From Trichlorobacter lovleyi SZ (lineage in GTDB: Bacteria; Desulfobacterota; Desulfuromonadia; Geobacterales; Pseudopelobacteraceae), in the NCBI RefSeq assembly GCF_000020385.1, contig NC_010814.1, positions 60,001 to 92,000 of the forward strand: 32,000 nt of DNA, given 5' to 3'. The notes beneath the pieces were generated by a model, which did not search any database, was not told the origin of the DNA, and saw nothing but the letters and a program-made list of their open reading frames with translations. The position numbers and the translations under genes were made by a program. Position 1 is the first letter of the stretch, and each line of letters opens with the position of its first letter. Shown here piece after piece: positions 1,253 to 31,087 of this stretch.

Positions 1253-1376
1253 GTTTAACGGGTTGCCGCTGAGCCGCGAGCGGTGTTGCTAGGCTAACCT
1301 GCCAACGGACGACCGAGAAACAGGTGAAATGCAGCGCACAGTACGCCGGTCCGAGTTGATTGAGCCGTTAGGGATT
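1253..1376 (-). repeat. Possible attC-like junction downstream of hicB (inverse-core-like CCCTAAC ... CCCGTTAAAC)
   Basis: Read on the minus strand, CCAATCCCTAACGG (rc of 1365-1378) begins 19-23 nt after the hicB stop. CCCGTTAAAC (rc of 1253-1262) lies just before the tag RBS. Only TAACGG/CCGTTA pair clearly and the internal pairing is poor. Confidence 0.3.
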
Positions 1377-1395
1377 GGATAGATTGAGTAGCTGA

Positions 1396-1722
1396 TTATG
1401 AAGCATGTGCCAGAACGTCAGACGCCCACTGGTTTATACTTACGCCATGAGCCTGCGCCATCATGGCTGCCCGAGCGTGGACTTCTGGTGGTACACGCAG
1501 CATGAGCTTGCCGGAGTACGGTTTTTGTGGTGCTCTTCCAACTCTTTCACAGGTTGCAAGATAGTCGTCAACTGCCTCCTCAAACGCTGCTCTCAGTTCT
1601 TTCACGGTTTCCGCATGGAAGCCGATAACATCTTTGATGCCGGCAATATGCCCGATAAAACATGCATCTTCGTCGCTATATTCAATTTTTGCAGCATAGC
1701 CCTTGAATGTCATTGTGCTCAT
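1396..1722 (-). CDS. hicB: HicB-family antitoxin
   Basis: 108 aa. N-terminal HicB fold pattern (FKGY.A.IEYSDED..F.G.I.GI.D.I.FH) and C-terminal RHH-like tail (L.LRVP.E.H..A...A...G.S.N.W). Its start overlaps the hicA stop as ATGA. Confidence 0.9.
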   Translation of the reverse strand: MSTMTFKGYAAKIEYSDEDACFIGHIAGIKDVIGFHAETVKELRAAFEEAVDDYLATCERVGRAPQKPYSGKLMLRVPPEVHARAAMMAQAHGVSINQWASDVLAHAS

Positions 1723-1973
1723 GGTTTTACTCCTGCGTTCTCCAGGAACGCCCTTGCATCTTTAACTTGATATGGTTTGGCCTCTTTTGCAGGGTGCGGG
1801 CGATGAAAAGTACCAATTATGCCGTTTAGCTCAAACCTGACCCTTGAACCGTTGCCTTCAATTGTTTGTGCACCGAGTGCAACGAACAATGATTCAATTT
1901 TTCTCCATTCCAAAGTTGCTGGAACAGGAAGTGAAAAAATAGCAAGCAGTGTGCTACGGTGAGATTTATTCAT
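1719..1973 (-). CDS. hicA: HicA-family mRNA-interferase toxin
   Basis: 84 aa with the pattern W..IE.L...LG......GS.V.F.....I..FHRPHP.KE. It lies upstream of and overlaps hicB by 4 nt, the canonical hicA-hicB order. Confidence 0.85.
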   Translation of the reverse strand: MNKSHRSTLLAIFSLPVPATLEWRKIESLFVALGAQTIEGNGSRVRFELNGIIGTFHRPHPAKEAKPYQVKDARAFLENAGVKP

Positions 1974-2007
1974 GAATTAAGGTTACCAAAGTGTCTATAG
2001 GAGTGCA

Positions 2008-2020
2008 ATCAAATATTGAT
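2008..2020 (-). promoter_or_regulatory. Candidate HicB operator palindrome ATCAAATATTGAT
   Basis: 13-bp palindrome (ATCAA-ATA-TTGAT) 35-47 nt upstream of the hicA ATG. The position suits antitoxin autoregulation. It is short and sits in AT-rich DNA. Confidence 0.3.
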
Positions 2021-2035
2021 ATCATTGTTTTGAAT

Positions 2036-2093
2036 CCCTAACGGGGCTGAGGCTGACCGGCATGTTTTAGGCCGGTCTTGGCGCAGGTTGGAC
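2036..2093 (-). repeat. 58-bp attC/59-be-like imperfect palindrome (element B) downstream of the AbiGi-like gene
   Basis: The minus strand reads GTCCAAC-ctgcgccaa-GACCGGC-ctaaaacat-GCCGGTC-agcctcag-CCCCGTTAGGG. GTCCAAC fits RYYYAAC exactly and starts 12 nt after the AbiGi stop. The 7-bp stem is 2055-2061/2071-2077. Confidence 0.55.
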
Positions 2094-2104
2094 AACATTC
2101 TTTT

Positions 2105-2902
2105 TTAAAAGTCTTTTCTTATTTGTTCCATCGTAATGATTCTAGTTGTTAATAAATCAATATCATCTTTGGAATATTTTGCTTTTATATATCTGAGCTT
2201 TTTTATAAAGTCTAAGACTTCTGTCTCACTGTCTAGGATGATATATTTTATGTCGCTTGGGGAAAATGATAGTTTGAATTGTTGTAGCTTTGTATTGTTA
2301 TAGTTTCGTATATCGTCGGCAGTAAATTCTTCTTTAGTCAATGAAGGTTTAAACTTATATTGCAGCATAGAATCAAGAGATGGTACATATCTCCACTCCC
2401 TTTCATCGTAAAACCTTACACCATCAACATATTTACCATTTCTCCACAGGGTTCCTTCATAAGGCTTGGACATAAATAAAAACAGTTCTAAATAAACCGC
2501 AATAAAGTCAAGAGTGGCTGGTTTTATTGAATTTAAATCTATGAGCTTACCAACGCTTTCATGATAGCTACCACGTAAATAGCCAGCAGTGGTGGCTTTT
2601 TCATAGGTATACAAAACAGGCGATATGCCTTTTGACTTCCCCCAATCTTTACTCAATCCAATGGCATAATTACCATAATTCTTTGCATGATTTCGTATGC
2701 TTGACAGTGGAATATCACAAAAACATACCATTGGTATTGCTCTTTCGCATAAATGAGGCAGACGATTGTGTTTAGAATTGAACATGGAATGATCTTCTAA
2801 GCAATATCGCGGATAAAACTCATTTACAAGTATACTCTCAAGGATTGATAAGCTGCTTGTGTAATGAAATAAGGTATCTGCACTTATAGGATTATAGTCC
2901 AT
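2105..2902 (-). CDS. AbiGi-family abortive-infection protein (solo, no AbiGii partner)
   Basis: 265 aa. N-terminus ...ADTLFHYTSSLSILESILVNEFYPRYCLED..., plus CFCDIPLS and YDEREWRY motifs as I recall for the AbiGi family. Very AT-rich (about 30-35% GC by eye) against about 60% in the flanks. Confidence 0.7.
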   Translation of the reverse strand: MDYNPISADTLFHYTSSLSILESILVNEFYPRYCLEDHSMFNSKHNRLPHLCERAIPMVCFCDIPLSSIRNHAKNYGNYAIGLSKDWGKSKGISPVLYTYEKATTAGYLRGSYHESVGKLIDLNSIKPATLDFIAVYLELFLFMSKPYEGTLWRNGKYVDGVRFYDEREWRYVPSLDSMLQYKFKPSLTKEEFTADDIRNYNNTKLQQFKLSFSPSDIKYIILDSETEVLDFIKKLRYIKAKYSKDDIDLLTTRIITMEQIRKDF

Positions 2903-2991
2903 TGGTAACCCACATAAATATTGATGATATTTTTGTATAATTTCGAAAAAGCAGTTTTATCAGTTGTTCAACTCGTTAATCTGCGGTTTCC

Positions 2992-3019
2992 CGATATGCG
3001 TAACTTGTTACCTATATCG
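2992..3019. repeat. 28-bp imperfect palindrome CGATAT-gc-GTAAC-tt-GTTAC-ct-ATATCG upstream of the AbiGi unit
   Basis: Read directly from the sequence. It lies 19 nt beyond the GTTCAAC box (2966-2972), the same relative position as the GC palindromes at the other two cargo genes. Confidence 0.4.
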
Positions 3020-3331
3020 GCTACTTGTTCCTCATATAAGTAACCACCCAGCCAGCTCAAAAATCCATCAGCGCTGCAAATATTCAATCGCAGAATCAGC
3101 GGGTTATCCGTGTTTATGTAAATTGTCAATTCAATTTACAATTTGCACAACAGGGTCAACTGCCGGTAAAAAAGTGAGAAAAACAGGGGTACCACACGTC
3201 TTTATCGAGGTTGTGCATCCCATTGATTCTACTCCCAGGTCTGGAACAGAGCTTCTCGGTTCAAAACCGCTCAGCCTTCATTCATCGGGGCAGAAACCGT
3301 ACTGGTAATCACTGGGGCACACTGCACAAAC

Positions 3332-3763
3332 CTAATCCGTGATTTCCACGTAGCCCCACCATTGGTCTGTGGTGGTGAATATGTTGCATTTGATGTTGGG
3401 CGGACAGGTACTGGTGGAAAATCTTACCGCAGGGGCAGAGGATTGCGTGCCTCCAAAGTAACGGCAGGTGCACTCGGGTGCCGTGCCGTGTTTAAACTTG
3501 AATGTGCCATTGCACATACCGGCAGTGGTCGTAAATTTAGTGTTTGCCTGACTGTTGGGGGGGATCGTGCAGGGGCCGTTTTCGCTGGTACATGCGCCAG
3601 TGAACCATACATTGCCATGACCGGCATCCACGGTAATAGTTACGGGCTGGCTTGAGCTGTTTTTAACCGCACGATTCCAGCTTTCACCCCAGGCATTGGA
3701 GAAGCTGATAAAGAAAAGGCTTAAAAACAGAAGCACTGTCCGCCGTTGCCATTGTGTATTCAT
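3332..3763 (-). CDS. Secreted Cys-rich small protein (143 aa) if translated from the internal ATG
   Basis: The ATG at 3763-3761 is preceded by AAGGAG (rc of 3772-3777) at 8-nt spacing. The N-terminus MNTQWQRRTVLLFLSLFFISFSNAWG is a classical Sec signal peptide. The mature part has 7 Cys and no family I recognise. Confidence 0.55.
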   Translation of the reverse strand: MNTQWQRRTVLLFLSLFFISFSNAWGESWNRAVKNSSSQPVTITVDAGHGNVWFTGACTSENGPCTIPPNSQANTKFTTTAGMCNGTFKFKHGTAPECTCRYFGGTQSSAPAVRFSTSTCPPNIKCNIFTTTDQWWGYVEITD

Positions 3764-5194
3764 CTTTAGATCTCCTTGCTGTATGGGATAACGAGCGACT
3801 GCTGAGATTCCACCTCTTGCATTGGCGTGTGAAATCTCCAGGTCATTGACCTGAACAAAGGCCGGTACCACGATCGCAGTGGGGTTACGGGCGCCATAAC
3901 TACTGGAGGTGTTACTGACGACCTGGGTTTGGGAGAGCCAGGCCAGCCTGTTACCAAATATATCCAGCAGGCTTTGGGTGATGCGCACATTGTAGGGCAC
4001 GACCACGGAGCCCTCTTTGGTGAGCAGCAACGCGCCAAAGCGCGAACTGGCCGTGATCAGCCCTGTGGAGGGGTTGACGATATTCAGGTAATGCAAGGAG
4101 GGAATGTACAGCAGGTCATTGCTGTGGGGCAGGTCAACCAGTTCTTTGAGCGTGCTGACCTGCGTGTTACCACCGGCCAGTACAAGGCTCTTGTGCATGA
4201 CCGTGTGCCCGGTGGGTGCGGTGCCAAACTCATCCGCATCATCCTGGGACCAGGTGAATGACCGGAACACCCCGTTGGCAAAGATCGGGAACGGTTTGCG
4301 CGGCATGCCCATGAAATCGCGCTGAAACGGGAATGTGTCCAGACAGGTGGGATCATCGCTCAGGGTAAACCGGCTTGATAAAACCTTTTGGCCGACCTGA
4401 TCCCCGGTTATGAAGGAAAACCCGCGTTTCATGGAGCCGCCGTCAAAACCGATGAAGTTCATAATGTCAATCAGTTCCGCAATGGCAGCAGAGCCGAACA
4501 CGACATCATACCTGCCCAGCGCTAGCTGACAGGGCGTATCCTGTTGGTACTGCTCCAGCAGGAAGGCCAGGTCACGGTGCAGCGCGGACGGGTCCAGGTC
4601 AGTTATTTGCCGGGCCGACTGCTCGGCCAGCAGTTCCCATTTGCGGGTGGCATGCGACAGGACAATGCTGATCTGCGCATCCGTGGTCTTGAAATACTGG
4701 CAGTGTTCCGAACGGGTGGTGATCTGCGCAAGGGTGGTCACACCAGTGGAAAAAATCCCGGAAAGCGTGATCTCATCCGCTTCAAGTCCTGCCACAGCCT
4801 GATTGAAAAACTCCAGGCGTGCCGCATTGGTGATCCCGGCCAGGCCGGCATCAAAGCCGCTTTCATCAATAAATGTTTCTGAAAAGGCCGGCATGGTGGG
4901 CTGGTAGTCCAGCGCCTGAGCATGCTTGACCATCTCTGCAGCACGATCCACCCCCTGCCTCATCTCCGCCATATTGCCCAAGGCGGTGATCAGTTCAAAG
5001 CTGGCCCGTTTGCGCCCTTCATAGGCGGTGATCTCCAGACGCAGAAGATGTTCGTTGGTGTTGAGCGAAATGGCCGAGTTGGCGCACCGCATCAGACAGC
5101 TCTCTTCCTCGTGCAGGAAGAACGCGGCATCAATCTGTTTTGCAAGCGCATAGGTGCGCAGGTCGTGCAAGGTTTGCAGAATCTGTTCCTTCAC
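3332..5194 (-). CDS. PmbA/TldE-family metallopeptidase-like protein whose ORF lacks a stop and continues in frame into a signal-peptide/Cys-rich module
   Basis: 620-aa ORF. GTG start at 5194 lies 2 nt after the tldD stop, with AGGAGAG upstream. Residues 1 to about 459 look like the TldD/PmbA family without HExxxH. An 18-aa linker (RGGISAVARYPIQQGDLK) and the module below follow. Confidence 0.8.
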   Translation of the reverse strand: MKEQILQTLHDLRTYALAKQIDAAFFLHEEESCLMRCANSAISLNTNEHLLRLEITAYEGRKRASFELITALGNMAEMRQGVDRAAEMVKHAQALDYQPTMPAFSETFIDESGFDAGLAGITNAARLEFFNQAVAGLEADEITLSGIFSTGVTTLAQITTRSEHCQYFKTTDAQISIVLSHATRKWELLAEQSARQITDLDPSALHRDLAFLLEQYQQDTPCQLALGRYDVVFGSAAIAELIDIMNFIGFDGGSMKRGFSFITGDQVGQKVLSSRFTLSDDPTCLDTFPFQRDFMGMPRKPFPIFANGVFRSFTWSQDDADEFGTAPTGHTVMHKSLVLAGGNTQVSTLKELVDLPHSNDLLYIPSLHYLNIVNPSTGLITASSRFGALLLTKEGSVVVPYNVRITQSLLDIFGNRLAWLSQTQVVSNTSSSYGARNPTAIVVPAFVQVNDLEISHANARGGISAVARYPIQQGDLKMNTQWQRRTVLLFLSLFFISFSNAWGESWNRAVKNSSSQPVTITVDAGHGNVWFTGACTSENGPCTIPPNSQANTKFTTTAGMCNGTFKFKHGTAPECTCRYFGGTQSSAPAVRFSTSTCPPNIKCNIFTTTDQWWGYVEITD

Positions 5195-5196
5195 CG

Positions 5197-6651: not shown

Positions 6652-6710
6652 TGTTCCTTCCTTGGCACCTGCTTGGTCTGTTACTGCCTGGTTGGCAATA
6701 ATCCTTAGAG

Positions 6711-7340: not shown

Positions 7341-7384
7341 GTCGGTTCCTTGGTGATGCAAATATACACACAATACGTTGCTTT

Positions 7385-8578
7385 TTATGCAGGGCAGCCC
7401 ATTTCAGCGCCTGCAACAAACACCTGATCAAGCAGCCTCAGGCAGGTATCCACCTCATCCGCGCTTACATTCAGGGCCGGCATGAAGCGCAGGGTATCGG
7501 GCCGGGCGGCATTGATAATCAGGCCAAGCTCACGGGCGGCCTCGGTAACGGCATCCCCGTTATTGGCCGGAAGTGCCAGGGCCTGCAGCAGTCCGCTGCC
7601 CCGAACCTCGCCCAGGCCATGCCGTGTGGAGAGCTTCCGCAGCCCATTGGCCAGCTGCACCCCTCTCTCACGGACCTGTTCCAGAAAACCGGGCTGCAGC
7701 ATGGCTTCCAGCACAGCACAGCCAACCGCAGCCATCAGCGGATTACCATTGTAGGTGCCGCCCTGGTCACCCGGTTCAAAACAGCAGACCGCCTCCTTGG
7801 CCAGCAGGGCAGCCAAAGGGACCCCGCCGCCGATCCCCTTGCCCAGGCTCATGATATCCGGCTCTACTCCGGCCTGCTGGTATGCAAACAGTGAGCCGAG
7901 CCGCCCCATGCCGGTCTGGACCTCATCAAAGATCAGCAGCAGCTGGTGCTGATCAGCCAACTGCCGCAGACCCTGCAGAAAGAGTTGACTGGCCGGGATC
8001 ACCCCGGCCTCGCCCTGCACCGGTTCCAGCATGATCGCCACCGTACGCTCTGAAATGGCCGCTGTTACCGCCTCAAGGTCATTCAGTCCTACCTTGATGA
8101 AGCCGGGCACCTTGGGCTCGAACAGCCCCTGCCAGTGCGGCTTGCCCGAGGCGGACATGGTTGCCAGGGTACGGCCATGGAAGCCGTTGACCATGGTGAT
8201 GATCTCATAGGCGCCCTGCTTGTGCAGGCTGCCCCACTTGCGCGCCAGCTTGATGGCCCCTTCATTGGCCTCTGCCCCGCTGTTGGCAAAAAAGACCCGC
8301 TCAAAGCAGCTGTTGGCGGTCAGCAGGTCAGCCAGCCGGATGGCAGGCTGATTGTAAAAGGCCGGGCTGGGGCTGATCAACTGAGCTGCCTGCTGGCTGA
8401 GGGCCTGCGTGATCACGGCTGGCGCATGCCCCAGGCAGTTGACTGCCCAGCCCTGGATAAAATCCAGGTAGCGCTTGCCATTGCTGTCTGTCAGCCACGA
8501 GCCCTGGCCTGCCACCATTACAATCGGTGGCCGTTTGGTGATGGTCATCAACGAATCAAATGCGCTGCTTTCAGACAT
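7385..8578 (-). CDS. argD: Class-III PLP aminotransferase, acetylornithine aminotransferase-like
   Basis: Motifs [30 protein letters not shown] and SLGKGIGGG (PLP lysine). Start placed at MSESS (8578) behind GGAGGAGG. The track's 45-aa N-terminal extension to 8713 crosses a terminator hairpin. The symbol is tentative because this may be a paralogue. Confidence 0.85.
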
Positions 8579-8649: not shown

Positions 8650-8847
8650 GGGTAATTGGCTGTGATGAATTAAACGGACGTACCTTACTCCATTGCACCG
8701 TGCATGGTGACACCTCTGTGCGCTATGAAGGAGTGACGTCGGATCATGGTCAAGAGCTTGCCTCAAAATTCGCAGCCCTGTCAATTGTTTTCAAGATTCT
8801 TTGGCAGATCAATCACGGTTACCCCTGCAACCGTAGCAAGCCATGTG

Positions 8848-8919
8848 CGATAACGGGGCTCGGCATGACCTGCGCGGCAAGTTCTTTTTGCCGCGTCAGC
8901 GTCTATGCCGGTGTTGGAA
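8848..8919 (-). repeat. 72-bp attC/59-be-like imperfect palindrome (element D) downstream of the TIR gene
   Basis: The minus strand reads TTCCAAC-ac-CGGCAT-agacgctga-CGCGGCAA-aaagaac-TTGCCGCG-caggtc-ATGCCG-agCCCCGTTATCG. There are two paired segments with asymmetric internal bulges. The TTCCAAC box begins 13 nt after the TIR stop. Confidence 0.6.
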
Positions 8920-8931
8920 ATCTAATTCATG

Positions 8932-10086
8932 TCATAAGTTATAAGAGGCTACCGCGTGTAGATGAGGTCCGTCTTCCCTGAGATAAGACAATAACTCATA
9001 AAATGACACATCTACGCTCCATCGCCCCATGGCATAACCACTGACTTGACCTGTTGGAAAGAGGAATGTGAAGCGGTCTGCGCTGACAGTGTATGTTTTG
9101 AAATGACTAGCATCTTCACCAGCACCGTTTTTAAATGATTCGATCTGAAAATCACTCGGTGTCTCTCCAGTTCGGTGCCAGTACTCTTTCGATAGCTCAT
9201 GGATGCATATTTCACTTATCCTTTTGATAGCACCTTGAGAATCTGAAAAGAAATCGGTTAGTTCAAGCTTGCGCACTTTGTCGACGTACTCAAAATTATA
9301 TGTTACGTAATAATAATTGGGGTGGGCCGCACCTGCATAGTACAGCCCAACATCATATGTGAGACTCAGGAATCGGTCAGTGGCATGGACAATCGCGAAA
9401 TTTTCCCAACAGCCATTTACCGCAGCAGCCCCTCTGGTTTTAAAAAATTCAGGCTCCTGTTCCCATGGCTTCTGCCTTGCGTCGATCAGGTCCGCGTATG
9501 CTCTCCCTACGAACAGGGCAGACAGTTCTTTAGCGACATCGGGCTTTGATGTGGACTGAAATCTTGGATACTCGATCTCGATATTGTGACCAGGCAAACC
9601 GTCCCAGTTATCTTCTATTCTTTCCGTAAAGACATTGAAAGGACCTGCAACTACACCATGTTCCAATTCGATTGATTGCTGCTCAGATGCCAGTCTGAGT
9701 GCTGCCTTGACCTGATCCCAAGCGCCTGGAACATTAAGGTCAACGTATTGTAGCCGAGCAGCTATGTGAGTCGGTACCTCGCAAGGCTCAAGCAGCAGCG
9801 GTATTACGTAAATATCTGTAAGTTGCTTATATCTTAGGCGTTCTATCGCATCATTAGCTTCTCTCTGCACAAAGCCTCGCTTTGTCACGCTTCGCTTGCT
9901 GAGCAAAAGCACTACTACATTTGCATCGCTAAAAGCCCGCTCTATTTCCGCTTCCCAGTTCTGGCCTGGCAATAGGTGCTTAGAATCAACCCACGGGGAA
10001 ACTCCCTCTTTAGCCAGAAGTTCATAATAGTGCTCGGCACTTTCGCGGTCCTCCTTGGCATAGCTAATAAAGACTTTCAGAGCCAC
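8932..10086 (-). CDS. TIR-domain protein fused to an RsiV/PdaC-like DUF4163-DUF3298 domain
   Basis: GTG start with GGAG 5 nt upstream. N-terminal TIR pattern: KVFISYAKEDRE.A......L...GV.PWVD......G..W...I..A....NVVVLLLSKRSV.....VQRE. The C-terminal part shows IEIEYPRF.S......ELS, YYAGAAHPNYYYVTYNF....K..EL.DFF and FLFPTGQVSGYAMGRWSVDVSFYEL, matching my memory of DUF4163/DUF3298. About 45% GC. Confidence 0.75.
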   Translation of the reverse strand: MALKVFISYAKEDRESAEHYYELLAKEGVSPWVDSKHLLPGQNWEAEIERAFSDANVVVLLLSKRSVTKRGFVQREANDAIERLRYKQLTDIYVIPLLLEPCEVPTHIAARLQYVDLNVPGAWDQVKAALRLASEQQSIELEHGVVAGPFNVFTERIEDNWDGLPGHNIEIEYPRFQSTSKPDVAKELSALFVGRAYADLIDARQKPWEQEPEFFKTRGAAAVNGCWENFAIVHATDRFLSLTYDVGLYYAGAAHPNYYYVTYNFEYVDKVRKLELTDFFSDSQGAIKRISEICIHELSKEYWHRTGETPSDFQIESFKNGAGEDASHFKTYTVSADRFTFLFPTGQVSGYAMGRWSVDVSFYELLSYLREDGPHLHAVASYNL

Positions 10087-10111
10087 ATTATCTCCATTTA
10101 TTACTTTTGTT

Positions 10112-10180
10112 TTCCAACTTGCTATTCACCGGTTCACGCGCGCGCGTGAACCGGTGAACCTCCCAAACGGAATATTTATC
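10112..10180. repeat. Conserved junction repeat, copy 1, containing a perfect 34-bp GC palindrome
   Basis: TTCCAAC-ttgctat-TTCACCGGTTCACGCGCGCGCGTGAACCGGTGAA-cctCCCAAACGGAATATTTATC. The segment 10125-10158 is its own reverse complement. It lies between the PIN stop and the TIR start and aligns with 31015-31087. Confidence 0.85.
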
Positions 10181-10592
10181 CCGCTGCTGCAAAATATCCT
10201 TCTGCCGTGACCACACGGATGCTGCTCTTACGGTAATGCCGGACATTACGGGTGATCAGCCCGGAGCAGCGTGCGCTGAGTGCGCAAAAATACTGCAGCG
10301 CATCTTCAAAGTCGGTAAACCCGGCATGCAGGGCCTGCTCAACAATGGTATCATCCACCGCAACCACACTGACCAACTGTTTGAAGGTGCGCAGCACTTG
10401 TTGGGCCTGCGGGCCAGAGTGCTGCTTTCTCAGCAGATAGAACAGATTGGCAAAGGTAAGTGAAGAAACGCACAAAGTCAGGTTGCCTGCCTCTGCCTCT
10501 GAAAAAAGCCGCGCAGCAGCGTCATAAAACGGCTCACGCCGCGCAAGCAGATCAAGCACAACATCCGTATCAACGAACAGATACGGCTTCAT
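10176..10592 (-). CDS. PIN-domain toxin (VapC-like)
   Basis: 138 aa with N-terminal FVDTDVVLDLL, acidic residues spaced as in PIN domains, and ...DFEDALQ.... It overlaps the upstream antitoxin gene by 4 nt. Confidence 0.85.
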   Translation of the reverse strand: MKPYLFVDTDVVLDLLARREPFYDAAARLFSEAEAGNLTLCVSSLTFANLFYLLRKQHSGPQAQQVLRTFKQLVSVVAVDDTIVEQALHAGFTDFEDALQYFCALSARCSGLITRNVRHYRKSSIRVVTAEGYFAAAG

Positions 10593-10834
10593 CGGTATTT
10601 ATCCGCCAGATAATCGGTATAGTCCCGCTTGTAATCTTTGACTTTGGCAGCATCAAGTACGCCGGAAAGCTGGGCCACCAGTGGCGTTACCGGCCTGGTC
10701 TGCTCTTTGGGCGCAGAAACCTGCCGCAGGTAGCCTTCAATCAGCTTTGAAAGGCTCTGGTGCTGCGATTGGGCAAAGCGTTTGGCCTGTTCAATTACAT
10801 CGTGATCAAGGCTTAAGGTAAGTTTTGTGTTCAT
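10589..10834 (-). CDS. DUF6364-type antitoxin partner of the PIN toxin
   Basis: 81 aa. MNTKLTLSLDHDVIEQAKRFAQSQHQSLSKLIEGYL matches the pattern I recall for DUF6364 antitoxins. AAGGAG lies upstream of the ATG. Confidence 0.75.
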   Translation of the reverse strand: MNTKLTLSLDHDVIEQAKRFAQSQHQSLSKLIEGYLRQVSAPKEQTRPVTPLVAQLSGVLDAAKVKDYKRDYTDYLADKYR

Positions 10835-10849
10835 GGCATCTCCTTGCTG

Positions 10850-10894
10850 TACGTATAGACAAAATAATTATACGTAAACATCAAGATAAAGCAA
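10850..10894 (-). promoter_or_regulatory. Candidate sigma-70 promoter with overlapping operator for the antitoxin-PIN operon
   Basis: On the minus strand: TTGCTT (rc of 10889-10894), 16 nt, then TATAAT (rc of 10867-10872). An 8-bp inverted repeat TACGTATA/TATACGTA (10850-10857 and 10869-10876) overlaps the -10 element. Confidence 0.5.
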
Positions 10895-10931
10895 GCACAG
10901 TATGCAGATTAAAAACCGCCTCATCAGCAGT

Positions 10932-12152
10932 CTACTCCCTCTTTCCCAGCGTATCAACCTGTGCCAGTTGCGGGAACAACCGTATCCAGAGCCCTACCAC
11001 CAGCAAGGTGCCAATCCCACCGACCAACACCGAGGGCACCGTGCCGAACAGGGCAGCTGTGGCGCCGGACTCAAACTCGCCCAGTTGGTTGGAGGTGCCG
11101 ATAAACAGGGAGTTGACCGCACTGACCCGGCCACGCATTGCATCCGGGGTCTCGATCTGCACCAGTGAGGAACGAATCACCACGCTGATCACATCAGCCG
11201 CACCCAATACCACCAAAGCCACCAGCGAGAGCCAGAACAGCCGCGACAGGGCAAATACGATGGTGGCAATGCCAAACAGGGCCACAGCCCGGAACATGGT
11301 GCGGCCCACCCGACGCTTGAGCGGCCTGCGGGCCAGCCAGAGCGACATACCTAGGGCGCCTGCTGCCGGTGCAGAACGCAGTAGGCCCAGACCCCAGGGG
11401 CCGGTGACCAGGATATCGCGGGCATAGATCGGCAAGAGCGCCGTGGCACCGCCCAGCAAGACCGCGAACAGGTCAAGGGAGATGGCACCCAGCACCACCG
11501 GGTGTTGTTTGATAAAGGAGATGCCGGCAAACAGGGAGCGGTCACCGGTTGCCTCTGTGGTGAGGGTGTCTGACGGCCGGATGCAGGAGATCAGGATGCA
11601 GGCAGCCAGAAACAGCACGCCAATGGTGCTATAGACCGTGGTCACGCCAGCAGCGTACAACAGCCCGCCAATGGCCGGGCCCACAATGGTGGCGGTCTGG
11701 TTGGCCGAGGCAGACAGCGCCAGGGCGCGGGGCAGGTGCTCGCGCGGGACCAGACGCGGCACCAGGGCATGCATGGTGGGGTACTCAAAGGCCCGCGCAC
11801 TGCCGATCACACACATGACCGCCAGCAGGGCCTCCTTGCCAAGCCAGTGGTAATGGCTGCCAAGCACCAGCGCTGCTGCTGCCAGGGCCTCGATAAACTG
11901 GCAGGTACGGGCGATGGTGCGGCGGTCGTAGCGGTCAGCCGCATGACCTGCCACCAGGGTCAGCAGGACCATTGGCAGAAACTGGGCCAGTCCCACCAGC
12001 CCCAGGTACCAGGCGCTGCTGGTCAGGGCATACATCTGCCAGCCCACAGCCACCCCCAGCATCTGAAAGGCGATGGAGGAACCCATCCGGCCGAACAGAA
12101 ACAGGACCAGCGGCTGGGCCAGCGGGCTTTTGGTGGTATGAGCAGGCGTCAT
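10932..12152 (-). CDS. MFS transporter
   Basis: 406 aa with about 12 hydrophobic segments and the DRYDRR loop motif after TM2 that is typical of MFS. Confidence 0.85.
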   Translation of the reverse strand: MTPAHTTKSPLAQPLVLFLFGRMGSSIAFQMLGVAVGWQMYALTSSAWYLGLVGLAQFLPMVLLTLVAGHAADRYDRRTIARTCQFIEALAAAALVLGSHYHWLGKEALLAVMCVIGSARAFEYPTMHALVPRLVPREHLPRALALSASANQTATIVGPAIGGLLYAAGVTTVYSTIGVLFLAACILISCIRPSDTLTTEATGDRSLFAGISFIKQHPVVLGAISLDLFAVLLGGATALLPIYARDILVTGPWGLGLLRSAPAAGALGMSLWLARRPLKRRVGRTMFRAVALFGIATIVFALSRLFWLSLVALVVLGAADVISVVIRSSLVQIETPDAMRGRVSAVNSLFIGTSNQLGEFESGATAALFGTVPSVLVGGIGTLLVVGLWIRLFPQLAQVDTLGKRE

Positions 12153-25930: not shown

Positions 25931-27439
25931 TCAGCGTCTTCCGCCAAACAGGCTGCCCAGTACGCCACGGATTATTGAACGACCGATCTGGCTGCCCATG
26001 GCGCGGGCCGCTGATTTTGTCAGGGCTTCAACCGCGCTTTCGCGTCCTCTGCTGTGGCCACTGCCGCCACCCAGCATATCTGCCAGCACACCGCCCAGGC
26101 CGCTGCTGCCGGAAGACGACGCAGCACCTGTCTGCGTCTGTGTATCAACTGCGTCGGCTGACTGTTTGGCTCGGGCCTTGAGGATTTCATAGGCTGATTC
26201 ACGATCAACGAGTGTATCGTAGGCACCGGCAACAAGCGACGTCTGGAGTAACCGGCTGCGCTGGTCAGCGCTGATCGGGCCGATCTGCCCCCGGGGCGGC
26301 ACCATGTAGGCACGCTCCACCACACCCGGGCGCCCTTTTTCATCAAGGCAGGAAACCAGCGCTTCTCCCACCCCCAGTTCAGTGATTACTGCAGCTTCAT
26401 CCAGGGCCGGATTGTCGCGCATGGTTTCAGCGGCAGCCTTGACCCCTTTCTGGTCGCGCACCGAGAAGGCGCGTAAGGCATGCTGGATCCGGTTGCCAAG
26501 CTGTGACAGGATTTTATCCGGCACATCAGCCGGATTCTGGGTAACAAAATAGACTCCCACCCCTTTTGAGCGGATCAACCGCACGACCTGCTCGATTTTT
26601 TCCACCAGTACCGGCGGGGCATCGCTAAACAGCAAGTGGGCTTCGTCAAAAAAGAAGACCAGCTTCGGTTTGTCAAGGTCGCCGACTTCGGGCAGATTTT
26701 CAAACAACTCAGACAGCAGCCAGAGCAACAGCGTGGCGTAAAGTTTTGGCGACTGCATCAGCTTTTCAGATGAAAGGATGTTGATGACCCCAAGCCCGCG
26801 GTCAGTCTGGAGCAGATCGGCACTATTAAGCATCGGTTCGCCGAAGATCTGCTCACCGCCTTGTGCCTCCAGGGTCAGCAGGCCGCGCTGGATGGCGCCG
26901 ATTGAGGCCGTTGATACATTGCCGTAGTCGGTGGTGAACTGTTTGGCGTTTTCACCGACAAAAGCGAGCATGGCCCGCAGATCCTTCAGGTCCAACAGTA
27001 ACAGGCCATTGTCGTCAGCCACCTTGAACACCAGGTTCAGGACGCCGCTCTGGGTTTCGTTGAGATCGAGCATACGCCCAAGCAGAAGTGGTCCCATGTC
27101 AGAGATGGTGGCCCGCACCGGATGACCATTTAAGCCGAACGGGTCCCACAGGGTAACCGGGTAGCCCTGGTGGGCAAACCCTTCAAGCTTCAAGGCCTTG
27201 ACCCGCTCGGTAACCTTGGCATTGCCGCCGCCGGGCTGTGATACGCCCGCAAGGTCACCCTTCACATCCGCCATGAAACAGGGCACGCCGAGGCTGGAGA
27301 AATGCTCGGCAAGCATCTGCAGGGTAACCGTTTTGCCGGTGCCGGTGGCGCCGGTGATCAGGCCGTGGCGGTTGGCCATCTGCGGCAGCAGCAGGATATC
27401 TGTGGTGCTGTTTTTGGCAATGAGAAGAGGTTCGGTCAT
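25931..27439 (-). CDS. HerA-like DUF853 (YjgR-type) P-loop NTPase
   Basis: Walker A GATGTGKT and Walker [12 protein letters not shown]. Gly/Ser-rich C-terminal tail typical of DUF853 proteins. Confidence 0.85.
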
Positions 27440-27449
27440 GGCAGCTCCC

Positions 27450-27740
27450 TTATAGTTTCAGAAACCAGGCATATTCAGGGCCGGTCCGGTTCGGTTCAAA
27501 CTCGGTCACTTCGTAGCTGGCAACCCCATGCTGGTTGAACGGGTCCTCCAGCAGTATTTCTGCAAGCTGTTCCTTGCTTACGCCGGTGGCCAGGATGATT
27601 CCGCCGGTGCGGGGTACCTTGCGGCCCGAGGCGATGAAGGTGCCCTGGCTAAAGTAGCGGTCAAGAAAGGCAAGATGGGCTGGCAGGTGATGATCCACCA
27701 CCTCCAGCTGCTGTTGGTAGGTTACGGATACGATGAACAT
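27450..27740 (-). CDS. YciI-family protein
   Basis: 96 aa from MFIVSVTY (27740, GGGAG upstream), with H..H..FL......G.....G pattern. The track's 22-codon N-terminal extension is unsupported. Confidence 0.75.
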
Positions 27741-27812
27741 GGCTGACTCCCTGGCGCCTGGTGTTGTTTTTATGCTTGGCGCTGGCAAGTATAGCCGATC
27801 TGGCAAAAATGG

Positions 27813-28574
27813 CTAGTTACTGCTGTGGTGCAGCAGCTCCGCCTGCAGGGCAGCTCCCAGGGCACCGACAATGGAGGGGTGGTCAGGCACCAGTACCGGT
27901 ACCCCTAGTTCCTGTGCAAGCAGGCTCACCATAATCGGGCTGTTGGCAACCCCGCCGCTAAAGACCAGATGATCGCCATACCCCACCTTGCGGACCATGG
28001 TGGCCAAGCGGTTGGCAACGGCCAGATGCACGGCCCTGGCGATCTCGGCCGGCGGCATGCCGCTGTTTTTCAGGGAGACCACCTCTGATTCCGCAAAGAC
28101 CGCGCACATGCTGTTGATCGGCGTGGCATGGTCGATGCTGGCCGCAGCAGCGCCAAACTCGGCCATGGTGTAGCCCAGCGACACCGCCATCATCTCCAGA
28201 AAACGGCCGGTGCCGGCCGCGCACTTGTCATTCATCTGGAAATTCTGGACCTTGCCCTCTGCGGTCAGGCTGATCACCTTGGAATCCTGTCCCCCCACAT
28301 CCAGAATGGTGCGGCATTGGGGAAAGAAATAGCGGGCTCCCATGGCATGGGCCTTTATCTCGGTGATGACATCCACCTCGGCATGTTGTTGCACCAGGTG
28401 GCGGCCATAGCCGGTGGCAACAGCCCTGACCGGTGCATGCTGCTCCAGAAAGGCCAGCGCCTGTCGGTGCGGTTCAAAGCTGCTTTCCACCACGGTATGA
28501 AAACTGATGGCGCCCTGTGTGAGCGCCACCAGTTTGATGGTACGTGATCCCAGATCAATCCCTACTTTCACCAC
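27813..28574 (-). CDS. Acyl-CoA dehydratase activase / BcrAD-BadFG-type ATPase
   Basis: VGIDLGSRTIK, DVGGQDSK and KCAAGTGRFLE motifs. The GTG start is coupled to the upstream stop (TAA-AT-GTG). Confidence 0.9.
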   Translation of the reverse strand: MVKVGIDLGSRTIKLVALTQGAISFHTVVESSFEPHRQALAFLEQHAPVRAVATGYGRHLVQQHAEVDVITEIKAHAMGARYFFPQCRTILDVGGQDSKVISLTAEGKVQNFQMNDKCAAGTGRFLEMMAVSLGYTMAEFGAAAASIDHATPINSMCAVFAESEVVSLKNSGMPPAEIARAVHLAVANRLATMVRKVGYGDHLVFSGGVANSPIMVSLLAQELGVPVLVPDHPSIVGALGAALQAELLHHSSN

Positions 28575-28576
28575 AT

Positions 28577-29866
28577 TTACCCCTTGATCTGCTCGATAAA
28601 TGCCTCAACACGGGTCTTGAGCTGGCCCACATCATCGGGCGAATAATCAGACTCAATCGCCATGAACGGGATGCCCCGCTCTTCGCAGGCCTTACGCAGC
28701 TTGACCGCCTCAATGTTGTAGGTGTGGCAGAACTGCAGGCAGTAGTCGATGATCCCCTCTGCGCCGGATTCTTCGTACTCCTTCAGCACCTGATCGATCC
28801 GCTCGGTGTTGGGGGTAAAGCAGGAACAGTCGATCTTCATGTAGCGCTCGGTCAGGCGTTCCAGCTGCTGCTCCAGCGTGGTGGAACTTTCATCGATCAG
28901 ATCCTTGTAGTAACGGGTGCCGATACAGCTCTCCTCGTTCACCACAATCCCGCCAGAGGTCTCGATGATGTTGTGCAGCTTCCAGTTGGGCAGCGCCATC
29001 GGCGTGCCGGAAACCATGATGCGTGGCGTTGTAGCCGGTGCAACAGCGACCCCCTGCTTGATCCGCTCCTCCAGCTCATCACAGAGTGCATTGACGTTTT
29101 CCACAAAGCGGTTCGGCTCGTCATAAAAGGCGATCTGCTCGATCAACAGCATATCCTTGCCGCTGATCGGGGACGGGGTGTGGTGGCGCAGGTTGTTCAG
29201 GCGCTGCAACGCCCTGCGTTTGGCATTGATGGTCACAATCGCCTGGGAAAGCTCGTCAAAGCCGGTTTCCGTGCCGGTGATCTTGTCCACCGCCACCTTG
29301 AACTCCTTGACCTCATCCAGCCAGAGCGCCTTGTCCTTGTCCCGCTTCATCTGCGGGATCTCCATCACATGGGTCGGCACATACTCGTCCAGCAGCTCCC
29401 AGGTCTTTTTCTTGGCATCGCAGGTGGTCTCGCCATAGACAAAATCCACGGCCTGGAAATAGGGGCAGATCTTGCCCACCTTGAAGCCAAAGGCAGACTT
29501 GACCATCGGGCAGATATTGCGGGGCAGCACCTTTTCCGCATCGGCAATCGAGCCCTGGGCGCCGCCGCACAGGCCGACACAGACACCACCGGCTGCCACC
29601 ACCACCTCTTCCGGGATATAGACACAGAAGGTGCCGATCACCGGCTTGCCAGCCTCTTTGGCCTCCATCAGCTCATGGATGCGGCCGGTGTGGATGTTCT
29701 CCACCATGCCGTCAAAATAGGCCATTCTGTCCGGACGGTTCTGTTGTGCCAGGAAGATGTTGGTATAGGCCTGGGTCAGCATGGCCGGCATGCCGGTAAA
29801 GCGGGCCACGTCCATGCCCAGTTTTTCCCACAGCTGCGGATCGGATTTCACCTCAAAAGCGCTCAT
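28577..29866 (-). CDS. 2-hydroxyacyl-CoA dehydratase-family / double-cubane-cluster-type anaerobic reductase
   Basis: 429 aa with multiple conserved Cys (FCVYIPEE, CGG, CPMVKS, TCDAKKK, CxG) and immediate pairing with an activase ATPase. GAGGGAGA RBS. Confidence 0.8.
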   Translation of the reverse strand: MSAFEVKSDPQLWEKLGMDVARFTGMPAMLTQAYTNIFLAQQNRPDRMAYFDGMVENIHTGRIHELMEAKEAGKPVIGTFCVYIPEEVVVAAGGVCVGLCGGAQGSIADAEKVLPRNICPMVKSAFGFKVGKICPYFQAVDFVYGETTCDAKKKTWELLDEYVPTHVMEIPQMKRDKDKALWLDEVKEFKVAVDKITGTETGFDELSQAIVTINAKRRALQRLNNLRHHTPSPISGKDMLLIEQIAFYDEPNRFVENVNALCDELEERIKQGVAVAPATTPRIMVSGTPMALPNWKLHNIIETSGGIVVNEESCIGTRYYKDLIDESSTTLEQQLERLTERYMKIDCSCFTPNTERIDQVLKEYEESGAEGIIDYCLQFCHTYNIEAVKLRKACEERGIPFMAIESDYSPDDVGQLKTRVEAFIEQIKG

Positions 29867-29986
29867 GAACGGTTCTCCCTCAATTGAAATAATGGAGACC
29901 GAACATAAAAGTGGGTGGAGGGGAAGTCAAACAGGTAATATCGATAATGGCGGACGAGAGTATTTGATAAATGGATAGCAAGAAGA

Positions 29987-30062
29987 GGGTAACGGGGTGC
30001 CCGGTTGACCTGCCGGGGGCGGTCTTTATGCCCCCGGTCACGGTCTGACCGGCTTGTTGGGA
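29987..30062 (-). repeat. 76-bp attC/59-be-like imperfect palindrome (element E) downstream of the 290-aa gene
   Basis: The minus strand reads TCCCAAC-aagccggtcagaccgtga-CCGGGGGC-ataaagacc-GCCCCCGG-caggtcaaccgggcaCCCCGTTACCC. The perfect 8-bp inner stem is 30013-30020/30030-30037, and the outer GACCGG/CCGGT(T)GACC pairing has bulges. Confidence 0.55.
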
Positions 30063-30118
30063 TGTCTCTTAAGTTCCATTTTCAAGGTCTGCCCCCTCAT
30101 CTTGTTCTTCCAAGAGAG

Positions 30119-30991
30119 TTAACAATCAGTTACGACATGTTCTTGTATTTCCTCAATTGCATTTCTTGGGTTGTAAATTTCCGAATTAAATGGCCATAGA
30201 GGGTGCATCAGGGGAAATCTTGATATGTTGATTTGGGAAGGGTAGGAAGCACTTCTGAATGAAAGGTGGTTGTCGTACTGAGCTGACAAATAGTATCCTT
30301 CGTGCCCTTTCATCGCAGCAGCCTGGATATTCCCACCGACAAGTAAGTTTTGAGGATCCTCGATTTCTCTTCTTATTGCTCTTACACAAGCAATTTCCAA
30401 TGCAGTCTCGATCGGCATTCGTGGCTTACAAATCAATAACTTATTAACCTCACATAGAATAATACCCTTTATTTCGTTTTTTCTATCGCCAATAACTCCG
30501 AAATAGACACCGTGTTCATTCGGAACTTCCTCTAACGGGTATACTTCTCTAGGAGTTCCAATTTTTTCAAAAATCCTGGTTCGTCCTGAGTCATCTGCAA
30601 GCATAAATAAGTATTCAATTTCTTTGTCATAAGCAGTCCGCCAGAAGTTGTCTATAGTTTCGTCTATTATTTCGATCAGTTGATCAAATTTTGCTCCACC
30701 AAGCAATCCGATTATGACAGCTTCTAAATGTATTATGCTTTGAAGTCCAAGGGAGACTGCTCCTGCAACAGATGCAACAATGTCTCGGCGACCTCGTTTT
30801 CTATCCGACTTCATGACGTGCAGTTTGATTCCAAAATCATTTTGATGACATATTTCTGTATCTGATGGGATGTTGACAAAACCATTCTCGACATTCTTAT
30901 TCCTCACTACTGTCAGTCTTGAATCTGAGAGTGCCATGGCTTGATCATATGCTTCTCTATTAAAATGTCTGTATGAAATACAAAGCGTCAT
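30119..30991 (-). CDS. Hypothetical protein, possibly an HslV/proteasome-beta-like Ntn hydrolase (by-eye similarity only)
   Basis: 290 aa, about 40% GC. MTLCISYRH...AMALSDSRLT...IVASVAGAVSLGL...YLFMLADDSGRTRIF...VYFGVIGDRKNEIKG...EDPQNLLVGGNIQAAAM loosely parallels blocks of E. coli HslV and 20S beta subunits recalled from memory. The SD is weak. Confidence 0.6.
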   Translation of the reverse strand: MTLCISYRHFNREAYDQAMALSDSRLTVVRNKNVENGFVNIPSDTEICHQNDFGIKLHVMKSDRKRGRRDIVASVAGAVSLGLQSIIHLEAVIIGLLGGAKFDQLIEIIDETIDNFWRTAYDKEIEYLFMLADDSGRTRIFEKIGTPREVYPLEEVPNEHGVYFGVIGDRKNEIKGIILCEVNKLLICKPRMPIETALEIACVRAIRREIEDPQNLLVGGNIQAAAMKGHEGYYLSAQYDNHLSFRSASYPSQINISRFPLMHPLWPFNSEIYNPRNAIEEIQEHVVTDC

Positions 30992-31014
30992 AGTATTGTC
31001 GAGTTCCCTGAAGT

Positions 31015-31087
31015 GACCAACTAGTTATTGACCGGTTAACGCGCGCACGCGCGTGAACCGGTGATCTACCCAAATGGAATGTTTATC
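31015..31087. repeat. Conserved junction repeat, copy 2 (imperfect 34-bp GC palindrome)
   Basis: GACCAAC-tagttatt-GACCGGTTAACGCGCGCACGCGCGTGAACCGGTG-atctaCCCAAATGGAATGTTTATC. It aligns along its length with 10112-10180, with one 4-nt indel and a few substitutions. It lies between the Fic stop and the 290-aa gene start. Confidence 0.85.

Follow-up and report, generated by a model that had tools for sequence, protein, structure and literature searches.

The genes for AbiGi, a TIR-DUF3298 protein and a 290-residue protein in the window (the whole stretch of 32,000 nucleotides of Trichlorobacter lovleyi SZ that was analysed), and probably also the hicA/hicB pair, are likely to be integron cassettes. 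The same reading takes an element of about 85 nt, which we call A, to be the docking point for the TIR and 290-residue cassettes and a conserved docking element for cassettes across Geobacter-like bacteria; it is apparently undescribed, no description having been found in the literature searched. The features are compiled in Table 1.

Table 1. Cassettes, attC-type sites and anchor elements in the window.
Feature	Position	Strand	Remarks
hicA/hicB unit	1253..2041	-	ORFs 1719-1973 and 1396-1722; 3' end decayed
3' end of hicAB unit	1367-1373; 1253-1294		CCCTAAC at 1367-1373; attC-like remnant at 1253-1294
AbiGi cassette attC-type site	2036..2093	-	GTCCAAC, hairpin, CCCCG|TTAGGG; CCCCGTTAGGG end
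AbiGi cassette	2042..2971	-	GTTGAAC at 2972-2966; ORF 2105-2902
Possible decayed anchor upstream of AbiGi	2972..3035	-	palindrome CCGATAT..ATATCGG, then GAAACCGCAGATTAACGAG|
TIR cassette attC-type site	8848..8919	-	TTCCAAC, bulged hairpin, CCCCG|TTATCG; CCCCGTTATCG end
TIR-DUF3298 cassette	8854..10117	-	GTTGGAA at 10118-10112; from TT of G|TTGGAA to G of CCCCG|TT; ORF 8932-10086
Anchor element A1	10118..10182	-	GGATAAATATTCCGTTTGGGAGGT, palindrome TCACCGGTTCACGCGCG/CGCGTGAACCGGTGA, then ATAGCAAG|
PIN (VapC-like) and DUF6364 toxin-antitoxin pair	10176..10834	-	Pfam; directly upstream of A1
290-residue cassette attC-type site	29987..30062	-	TCCCAAC, bulged hairpin, CCCCG|TTACCC; CCCCGTTACCC end
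Cassette for 290-residue protein, no family assigned	29993..31020	-	GTTGGTC at 31021-31015; ORF 30119-30991
Anchor element A2	31021..31087	-	25 nt downstream of the stop codon of a Fic gene

For each of the three genes the earlier note had read, on the minus strand, a GTTG-type box, the ORF, a box ending in CAAC and a hairpin, and all of these lie where they were claimed. The GC content of the cargo is 0.34–0.47 (AbiGi cassette 0.34, 290-residue cassette 0.39) as against 0.59 in the remaining window. The sequence CCCCGTTA occurs four times in the window where 0.54 copies are expected, a count reached in 0 of 100 shuffles, and three of the four copies are on the minus strand directly 3' of cargo ORFs. 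The cargo had been described as toxin-antitoxin modules and phage-defence genes, and the annotations bear this out for the AbiGi ORF (AbiGi in Pfam, 6.8e-82, and in PADLOC, 4e-56), the TIR ORF (TIR_2 and DUF3298 in Pfam, with TIR models matching in PADLOC as well) and the hicAB unit (HicA and HicB in Pfam); the 290-residue protein has no match in Pfam, NCBIfam, PADLOC or PDB sequences. The PIN/DUF6364 toxin-antitoxin pair and the Fic gene, which lie upstream of two of the cassettes, had been missed in the earlier note.

Folding of the three hairpins on the better-folding strand gave z-scores of -3.0 for AbiGi (obtained on the bottom strand), -5.0 for TIR and -3.8 for the 290-residue gene, and bulges are present on the AAC-box arm of the latter two. 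For a covariance model (R2), 27 cassette ends were taken from other Desulfuromonadales genomes and the window was left out of the training; the stem of the model shows compensatory changes at 7 of 9 pairs, and the family consensus has unpaired columns 17 and 20–21 on the 5' arm. The three best matches of R2 in the window are exactly the three hairpins singled out from the letters alone, at 34.0 bits for the TIR site (E 1.1e-5), 33.1 bits for the AbiGi site (E 1.7e-5) and 23.8 bits for the 290-residue site (E 2.2e-3), all others having E > 0.4. The ends of the 290-residue site closely resemble those of the L071 site. Every one of the three window sites and the 27 training sites has AAC and GTT. 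The attC geometry of the window sites is unusual: the first R'' base is T and no purine in two of the three, the spacer from the AAC box to the stem is 2–3 nt in the TIR and 290-residue sites and 9 nt in AbiGi, and the spacer on the GTT side is 6–12 nt, compared with 5 and 6 in class 1 sites. A second model (R1), made from 14 class 1 integron attC sites, leaves all three window sites unscored, its best matches in the window having E >= 0.33 and lying elsewhere. The earlier note would have counted silence of an attC model against its reading; this applies to the three window sites, but R1 does match four sister sites of the same family with E 2e-4 to 3e-3, as well as held-out class 1 sites; the end of the first cassette behind A, in L074 and in L013, is among these sister sites.

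If each unit is circularised at G|TT, a recount of the matches between the reconstituted core and its inverse core gives the same 7/7 (TIR), 6/7 (AbiGi) and 5/7 (290-residue gene) as before. Across the family, in a set of 51 sites from about 35 genomes, R'' matches the start of its own cassette perfectly at all four variable positions in 20 of the 51, whereas 5000 swaps gave a mean of 1.8 perfect matches and a maximum of 8; the mean match at the variable positions is 2.84 as against 1.58 +/- 0.13 in the swap control. The complementarity of core and inverse core across the family is thus highly significant. For hicAB the case is weaker. The box CCCTAAC does directly follow hicB (1373-1367), but the 120-nt tail folds no better than shuffles (z = +0.5), and the tail yields a marginal R2 match at the remnant (13.5 bits, E 0.47). 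As a cassette the hicAB unit is weakly supported.

Two conserved palindromic elements, A1 and A2, end in the GTTGG boxes at 10118 and 31021. The upstream GTTGRNN box had been seen before, and the whole element behind it had gone unnoticed. A1 and A2 match the A profile in nhmmer with E 2e-20 and 6.5e-21, respectively, and are 80–86% identical to each other; the fold of A1 has a z-score of -4.9. Element A was found at 68 loci, about 65 of them in Desulfuromonadales (Geobacter, Trichlorobacter and Pelobacter genomes); a genome carries several copies, and as many as 4 loci were counted in a single MAG. The last bases of the consensus are GTTRRRY; in 57 of 66 copies the GTT stands exactly 5 nt past AAT, and AT-shifted DNA lies downstream in 43 of 55 copies. 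The genes upstream of A are mutually unrelated core genes. Upstream of AbiGi, a palindrome other than that of A, followed by GAAACCGCAGATTAACGAG, may be a decayed anchor: the GAAACCGCAGATTAACGAG region agrees with the 3' flank of the A consensus at 18 of 25 positions, as compared by eye and by motif search, and the A profile does not detect the element. The assignment is weak.

Comparison between genomes places the cassette boundaries at the same cores. The TIR cassette recurs in metagenome contig L199, 92% identical over 1254 nt, with the homology beginning at the G of G|TT; upstream of it stands A in the window and the attC of a foreign cassette in L199, and in L198 it sits behind another copy of A. 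At orthologous A loci homology is lost within 2–3 nt of the G|TT of A, and orthologous copies carry different cassettes. One copy (L049) is empty, while its ortholog L045 holds about 2.9 kb of cassettes past the same G|TT, the left junction being exact and the right junction falling within about 15 nt. Breakpoints at G|TT in related genomes, as the earlier note had anticipated, are therefore seen on the left side and to within about 15 nt on the right. No empty cassette site was found among strains of the window's own species. All of these strains carry the same cassettes, so that nothing points to recent activity at these loci. No attC could be detected at the distant TIR homologs of Methyloversatilis and Azonexus.

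That the downstream hairpins belong to a REP or terminator family, with the complementarity of the boxes a coincidence, is an explanation so improbable as to be negligible. The hairpins are GC-rich and stand behind stop codons, and transcription termination may well be one of their side effects. They contain no T-run, however, and terminator prediction over window positions 8700-11000 made no call at the TIR attC or at A1. AT-shifted DNA precedes 52 of 53 sites (p = 3e-10) and the end of a same-strand ORF precedes 45 of 53, and there is no significant R2 match (E < 0.4) behind the core genes of the window; the elements follow AT-rich ORFs rather than ordinary GC-rich genes and so do not form a REP or terminator family. 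With the complementarity statistic far outside its control and cassette junctions exact between genomes, this candidate was rejected.

The R2 matches, the complementarity, the G|TT junctions and the R1 matches of sister sites together lead us to read the units as integron cassettes without a nearby integrase, of the CALIN/SALIN type. The main proposal of the earlier note, integron-type cassettes bounded by G|TT, each with its own attC, in islands of one or two without intI, draws support from the same R2, complementarity and junction results and from the AT-rich placement. The search for an integron integrase, which covered the window and about 45 kb of the source contig, found none, in agreement with the statement that no intI is visible, so that attC-type sites are present here without an integron integrase nearby. 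A homolog search with IntI1 listed mainly IntI1-like proteins.

Could A itself be an attC? On this account it would be an atypical, highly conserved attC of the units upstream, toxin-antitoxin cassettes such as PIN/DUF6364 or MazEF, and the islands would be ordinary small CALINs without a docking site. Toxin-antitoxin modules do directly precede A in the window, L053, L045, L049 and L026, the pair in L053 being homologous to that in the window, where the stop codon of the PIN gene is the TAA within GGATAAAT of A1. A unit of MazEF and A (L026) and A alone (L030) are bounded on the left by the G|TT of an attC, as if A were part of a cassette; a GTTRRRY end and a hairpin are present, and GTTCCAT in the 5' flank of A could pair with GTTGAAC at 6/7 positions (consensus read by eye). 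On the other hand, neither R1 nor R2 scores A1 or any other copy, even at E<=10. The hairpin of A forms a nearly perfect palindrome that has no extrahelical bases, and A lacks the conserved R'' AAC, there being no AAC box at the expected 5' position. The upstream neighbours are mostly large GC-rich core genes, orthologous between species over >5 kb, and in at least seven loci it is a core gene that is terminated by the TAA of A; a consistent G|TT left boundary is not visible. We consider this account rather unlikely.

A further account takes each copy of A for the relic of a complete integron, namely attI with the intI promoter region after loss of intI, so that the loci would be decayed integrons and no functional platform. 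In other integrons, intI promoters are accompanied by LexA boxes as part of SOS regulation. The palindrome of A, GGTT-N(10-18)-AACC, resembles the LexA motif of G. sulfurreducens, GGTT-N10-AACC (PMC8565304), but the N10 spacing occurs in only 5 of 66 copies. A does come first in the array and end in a crossover core, like attI, and a subgroup that reaches 20 nt further, to TTTTCATGTG, reads ATGAAAA on the other strand, possibly a start codon stub. Searches with tblastn nevertheless found integrase fragments near A in 0 of ~65 loci, A is present in several copies per genome, as noted above for the MAG with 4 loci, and dozens of independent complete deletions of intI, all ending at one base, are implausible. 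Such an origin is very unlikely.

We favour A as an attI-like primary site, occupying dozens of fixed positions in Geobacter, Trichlorobacter and Pelobacter at which cassettes would accumulate. Each cassette would have entered as a circle, with the crossover at G|TT, those of TIR and the 290-residue gene at the GTTRRRY end of A, and transcription may be supplied by upstream genes such as the PIN toxin-antitoxin operon or Fic. An integron integrase that is encoded elsewhere and acts in trans would be the recombinase. For Geobacter species, the presence of at least two intI genes has been reported (PMC2426708), and IntI activity is established as a source of isolated cassettes in the form of SALINs and small CALINs (bioRxiv 10.1101/2022.09.11.507474). 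It is highly improbable that mobility of A and the cassettes instead depends on another hairpin-dependent system, for example a Y1/HUH transposase or a tyrosine recombinase dedicated to them. The absence of IntI from the window, about 45 kb of the source contig and the A loci would fit such a system, as would the departure of the window attC geometry from class 1 sites, and the strongly conserved single-stranded flanks of A hint at a sequence-specific protein dedicated to it. Around the ~65 A loci, however, there is no recurrent recombinase or transposase family, all integron hallmarks are present at the cassette ends, some of which the class 1 attC model recognises, and crossover at G|TT is the integron signature. 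The different system put forward as an alternative in the earlier note is not needed for the cassettes, though it might still apply to the anchor.

Compared with class 1 attC sites (59-base elements), the window sites share the RYYYAAC ... GTTRRRY ends, the imperfect palindrome, the unpaired bases on the R''-L'' arm and an R'' complementary to the 5' end of the cassette itself, whereas they differ in spacer length and in how the bulges are spaced. In sedentary chromosomal integrons, homogeneous attC repeats such as the Vibrio cholerae repeats come after each cassette of a single large array adjoining intI. Element A is likewise lineage-specific, highly conserved and cassette-associated, with toxin-antitoxin cassettes nearby, but each locus has a single copy, placed at the head of the array, and the cassettes' own attC sites are heterogeneous. 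With attI it has in common that it is conserved in the lineage, heads the array, has a GTTRRRY end with a G|TT crossover, receives different cassettes and can be empty. The described attI is a single site adjoining intI (PMC3146285), whereas A is multi-copy and dispersed, was never beside an integrase in the loci examined (0 of ~65) and holds a long GC-rich perfect palindrome. An account of Delta-attI-type cassettes in mobile integrons (PMC12901181) describes attI-derived sites in cassette-like array positions, comparable to A in L030 and L026; those are truncated attI in class 1 arrays beside intI1, whereas A is a dispersed chromosomal family. In overall layout the islands resemble CALINs and SALINs, attC clusters and solitary attC sites that lack an integron integrase (Cury et al. 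2016, PMC4889954; Loot et al., bioRxiv 10.1101/2022.09.11.507474), which similarly form islands of one or two cassettes among core genes with no nearby intI and consist of cassettes with attC sites and defence or toxin-antitoxin cargo. SALINs have been explained by insertion at attG sites, for which the sole consensus is GWT (bioRxiv 10.1101/2022.09.11.507474), whereas a single specific, conserved 85-nt element is the location of two of the three islands here and of about 65 loci in related genomes.

The window has a GC content of about 59% and bears most of its genes on the minus strand, and its runs of housekeeping genes are broken by three AT-rich islands, whose coordinates are collected in the table together with those of the other features discussed here. 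Searches of Pfam, NCBIfam, PADLOC and the PDB sequences returned nothing for the 290-aa protein of island 3. Its gene occupies the same kind of slot as those for TIR and AbiGi, both of them defence genes, and is therefore a candidate for a new one.

Coordinates of the cargo islands, hairpins, A elements and compared loci
Feature	Location	Strand	Flanks or details
Island 1, AbiGi	window 2105-2902		TldD-like peptidase gene; 3-methyladenine glycosylase gene
Island 1, hicA/hicB	window 1396-1973		as for AbiGi
Island 2, DUF6364/PIN toxin-antitoxin pair	window 10176-10834		MFS transporter gene; class III aminotransferase gene
Island 2, TIR-DUF3298 gene	window 8932-10086		as for DUF6364/PIN
Island 3, 290-aa ORF	window 30119-30991	minus	Fic gene; 2-hydroxyglutaryl-CoA dehydratase gene
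Hairpin after TIR gene	window 8848-8919	minus	R2, E 1e-5
Hairpin after AbiGi	window 2036-2093	minus	R2, E 2e-5
Hairpin after 290-aa ORF	window 29987-30062	minus	R2, E 2e-3
hicAB tail, first match	window 1292-1373	plus	R1, E 0.35
hicAB tail, second match	window 1253-1294	minus	R2, E 0.47
Element A1	window 10118-10182		GTTGG box at 10118
Palindrome of A1	window 10128-10155		N14
Element A2	window 31021-31087		GTTGG box at 31021
Palindrome of A2	window 31031-31062		N18
Gap between transglutaminase-like and TldD-like genes	window 6652-6710		60 bp
Gene in the same gap, close relative	L079:1900-3966		about 2 kb
Insert in sister strain	L004:2570-3480		A, 246-aa cassette, MarR gene
Locus compared with the insert	L001:4051-4140
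Repeats at Fic promoter	L001:7385-7545		just past the window end
Double A	L052:6561-6695
Double A	L058:814-886, 2106-2178
Double A	L031:6838-6904, 7629-7694

The earlier note had described a GTT box before each of the three cargo ORFs and an AAC box with an imperfect palindrome behind it, and every one of these boxes was found where it had been placed. The sequence CCCCGTTA occurs four times in the window against 0.54 expected, three times directly after cargo ORFs on the coding strand. Folding of all three downstream hairpins is significantly stronger than that of shuffled sequences; those of the TIR and 290-aa genes have bulges on the AAC-box arm. The proposal that these are attC sites was examined with R1, a covariance model trained on 14 authentic attC sites of plasmid-borne class 1 integron arrays, R'' being paired with R' and L'' with L' in the textbook manner: it gave the window hairpins no score, but among related Desulfuromonadales sequences totalling 520 kb it detected four sister cassette ends with E-values of 2e-4 to 3e-3, two of which close the first cassette behind an A element, the conserved repeat of about 85 nt described below. 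A second model, R2, was trained on 27 Desulfuromonadales cassette ends, all from other genomes; in its consensus stem 7 of 9 pairs show compensatory changes, and the unpaired positions lie on the 5' arm. With all filters off, the three best R2 matches in the window coincide exactly with the limits proposed for the three hairpins. From the results with both models, the window elements are therefore members of a family that overlaps the range of the clinical attC model. The fourth-best R2 match lies in the tail of the hicAB unit, which had also been read as a cassette; there the expected CCCTAAC box was found, yet folding of the 120-nt tail does not exceed the chance level, and the marginal R1 and R2 matches may represent two decayed attC remnants.

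The hairpins could alternatively belong to a REP or terminator family that follows ordinary GC-rich genes. Of the 53 family members, however, 52 are preceded by DNA of higher AT content than their own locus (GC 0.435 before the hairpin versus 0.537 for the locus, p = 3e-10), 45 are at most 90 nt away from an ORF end on the same strand, and R2 found no significant match (E < 0.4) behind any core gene of the window, so this alternative is rejected. The assignment to attC is also borne out by the boxes themselves. A cassette excised at the crossover point G|TT carries its own 5' TTRRRY, and for this reason its inverse core is expected to complement its own first bases. For each R2 match downstream of A, the four variable bases of R'' were compared with the junction immediately upstream, junctions swapped between loci serving as the control. 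Complementarity at all four bases was observed in 20 of 51 sites, whereas swapped junctions gave 1.8 such sites on average and never more than 8; averaged over sites, the match was 2.84 as compared with 1.58 ± 0.13 in the control. The same rule holds from cassette to cassette inside arrays (for example in L027, L024, L066 and L071), and the complementarity claimed for the window is confirmed over these bases, at 4/4 for TIR, 3/4 for AbiGi and 2/4 for the 290-aa gene. Two cruder tests, one taking the best 7-mer in a 3.5-kb range and the other a structure-only attC finder, were too noisy, and the model-based chain test was used instead.

Evidence for mobility comes from L199, a contig among those with the closest relatives of the TIR protein, in which the same TIR cassette is present with 92% nucleotide identity over 1254 nt. 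Its homology with the window starts at the G of G|TTGGAAAAC, which is the breakpoint that the cassette reading had predicted, and the DNA 5' of the cassette is element A in the window versus the attC of another cassette in L199 (GCCCAAC...CACACCG|). In contig L198 the TIR cassette, 85% identical, stands behind another A, and the chromosomal surroundings differ from those in the window. Distant TIR homologs of Methyloversatilis and Azonexus are found in small islands with no attC by either model, and the TIR gene family therefore also moves by other routes. One of the settings of TIR-DUF3298 homologs with 60–72% identity (L191-L193 and L194-L196) is a TrwC-relaxase conjugative element beside restriction-modification genes.

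The window corresponds to contig JBNLSA010000038.1 of assembly GCA_050171295.1, and Geobacteraceae MAGs are its nearest relatives among the DNA compared. Within the species no empty sites were found, the same cassettes being present in every contig with the flanking core proteins. A metagenome scan with the aminotransferase gave one close relative only, L079, which does not extend to island 1 and which excludes island 2 because it begins within the aminotransferase gene. Between its transglutaminase-like and TldD-like genes, in flanks with 95% amino-acid identity to the window, L079 carries a GC-normal gene in place of the short gap in the window; the product is repeat-rich and probably surface-exposed, and the gene shows no features of A or of attC and has no relation to the cassettes. 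Four independent short-read metagenome contigs of the same species (L160, L162, L165 and L167) stop 10–47 bp past the PIN stop codon, at or within element A1, which fits either an assembly broken off because the repeat is multi-copy or a population that is heterogeneous downstream of A. In the sister strain L004, a beta-lactamase-family gene and an aldo-keto reductase gene are separated by three items that L001 lacks there: an extra A, a 246-aa cassette whose end resembles an attC (..AAACG|TTATGCG), and a MarR gene. This pair was rejected as a clean empty-site comparison, as the flanks are divergent alleles and the event is not reconstructable. The Fic gene, cut by the window end, encodes 404 aa in L001, and in its promoter region ATCGGCCAAAA(C/T) is present four times, arranged about an AT-rich core, in what looks like an operator array.

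The GTTGG boxes upstream of the TIR and 290-aa genes are the final bases of A, a second repeat, of which a third copy precedes the 246-aa cassette of the sister strain. With the palindrome alone as query and one genome per species, a census returned 68 loci, about 65 of them in Geobacter, Trichlorobacter, Pelobacter and other Desulfuromonadales, with the consensus GGATAAATGTTCCATTTGGGnAGATCA-CCGGTTCACGCG(4-12 nt, always an even number)AACCGGTsAAT-nnnnn-G|TTRRRY. Isolates whose genomes bear A include Geobacter sp. OR-1, Trichlorobacter thiogenes ATCC BAA-34 and Geobacter hydrogenophilus DSM 13691. Conservation of the unpaired 5' flank equals that of the stem, and GTT lies exactly 5 nt past AAT in 57 of 66 copies. 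There is usually one copy per 8-kb locus and at most four loci per genome; double-A loci, tandem or 0.8–1.3 kb apart, were also seen (Table). The genes upstream of A, about 50 in number, are unrelated and mostly GC-rich, and in at least 7 cases the TAA of A is their stop codon. Composition shifts towards AT after A in 43 of 55 assessable copies (GC 0.553 upstream, 0.442 downstream), and the DNA that follows is typically an ORF ending in an R2-type attC.

Orthologous A loci of different species share the flank to within 2–3 nt of G|TT and then diverge completely. At the cobT-cobS locus, A is followed directly by cobS in L049; in L045 cassettes amounting to about 2.9 kb are inserted at this same G|TT, and L053 has a single cassette there. 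The module before A in this intergenic region is MazEF-like in L045 and L049 and DUF6364/PIN in L053, which suggests that the toxin-antitoxin module adjoining A is itself exchangeable; such modules precede A in several further loci, including island 2 of the window. Together, the results show that the cargo genes are integron-type cassettes, that A stays at fixed chromosomal positions while the cassettes vary, and that the GTT of A and the GTT of attC are interchangeable crossover points.

A itself is scored by neither attC model, is without bulged bases and has no AAC box at the R'' position. It is not a known RNA family (an Rfam scan of the window gave nothing at the gathering threshold and noise only at A), and no promoter or terminator was predicted in A1, the copy scanned. 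It is absent from the viral contigs and plasmids searched, and neither the motif nor any dispersed attI-like site was found described in the searchable literature. No protein family, recombinases and transposases included, recurs beside A, and no divergent gene adjoins it; an extra 20 nt conserved in one subgroup does not extend into an ORF. Searching with IntI1 as query, checked against NCBIfam, we found no integrase in any A locus or in about 45 kb of source contig, and the matches listed in a search for Desulfuromonadales intI were saturated by IntI1-like proteins. Two or more intI genes have been reported in Geobacter metallireducens and G. lovleyi (PMC2426708).

On the preferred reading, recombination of attC with A would be catalysed in trans by an integron integrase encoded elsewhere, with A acting as a primary, attI-like site and cassette transcription presumably entering from the resident upstream gene. 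This simple attI-like reading is complicated by L030, in which A alone lies between the G|TT of an attC and its own G|TT, and by L026, in which a MazEF-like module and A do; these boundaries put A in a cassette-like position there. A tentative and somewhat doubtful extension is that Desulfuromonadales run a distributed integron, in which the many chromosomal copies of A are satellite primary sites for one remote integrase. A single integrase could then assemble and rearrange numerous mini-arrays of defence and toxin-antitoxin cassettes across the chromosome; each would be expressed from its resident upstream gene, perhaps with SOS or LexA control acting through the palindrome. That palindrome is GGTT-N(10-18)-AACC, its inner spacer always varying by two nucleotides at a time, in the manner of (CG)n, and the LexA-binding motif of G. 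sulfurreducens is GGTT-N10-AACC (PMC8565304); the link to LexA is a lead only, because the N10 spacing occurs in 5 of 66 copies and the window copies have wider spacers.

Two explanations are current for integron cassettes that stand alone, namely that they are left over from decayed integrons or that they were inserted almost at random at GWT sites, and cassettes are placed outside integrons by IntI (Loot et al., bioRxiv 10.1101/2022.09.11.507474). The window and about 65 related loci present a third situation, in which a specific, conserved, multi-copy chromosomal site gathers cassettes with no integrase in the vicinity. If an integrase uses A in trans, an integron platform need not be one locus, which would alter how integrons are searched for; tools of the IntegronFinder type would list the A loci as single attC sites or as CALINs with no relation to one another, and the anchor would escape them. 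Such use in trans would also account for the phage-defence genes TIR and AbiGi and the toxin-antitoxin modules scattered among housekeeping genes in Geobacter-like bacteria. A provides a defined sequence for recombination assays and a handle for collecting what the cassettes carry, the uncharacterised 290-aa protein being one example.

The cassettes themselves are of the CALIN or SALIN type (attC clusters or single attC sites without an integrase), a kind already known, whereas the anchor A matches no described category. The attG sites, at which IntI inserts cassettes outside integrons, have a GWT-only consensus, whereas A is a specific conserved element. The attI site is single and adjoins intI, in contrast to A, which is multi-copy, its loci being without an integrase. 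In chromosomal integrons an attC repeat stands behind every cassette, and A is unlike that pattern.
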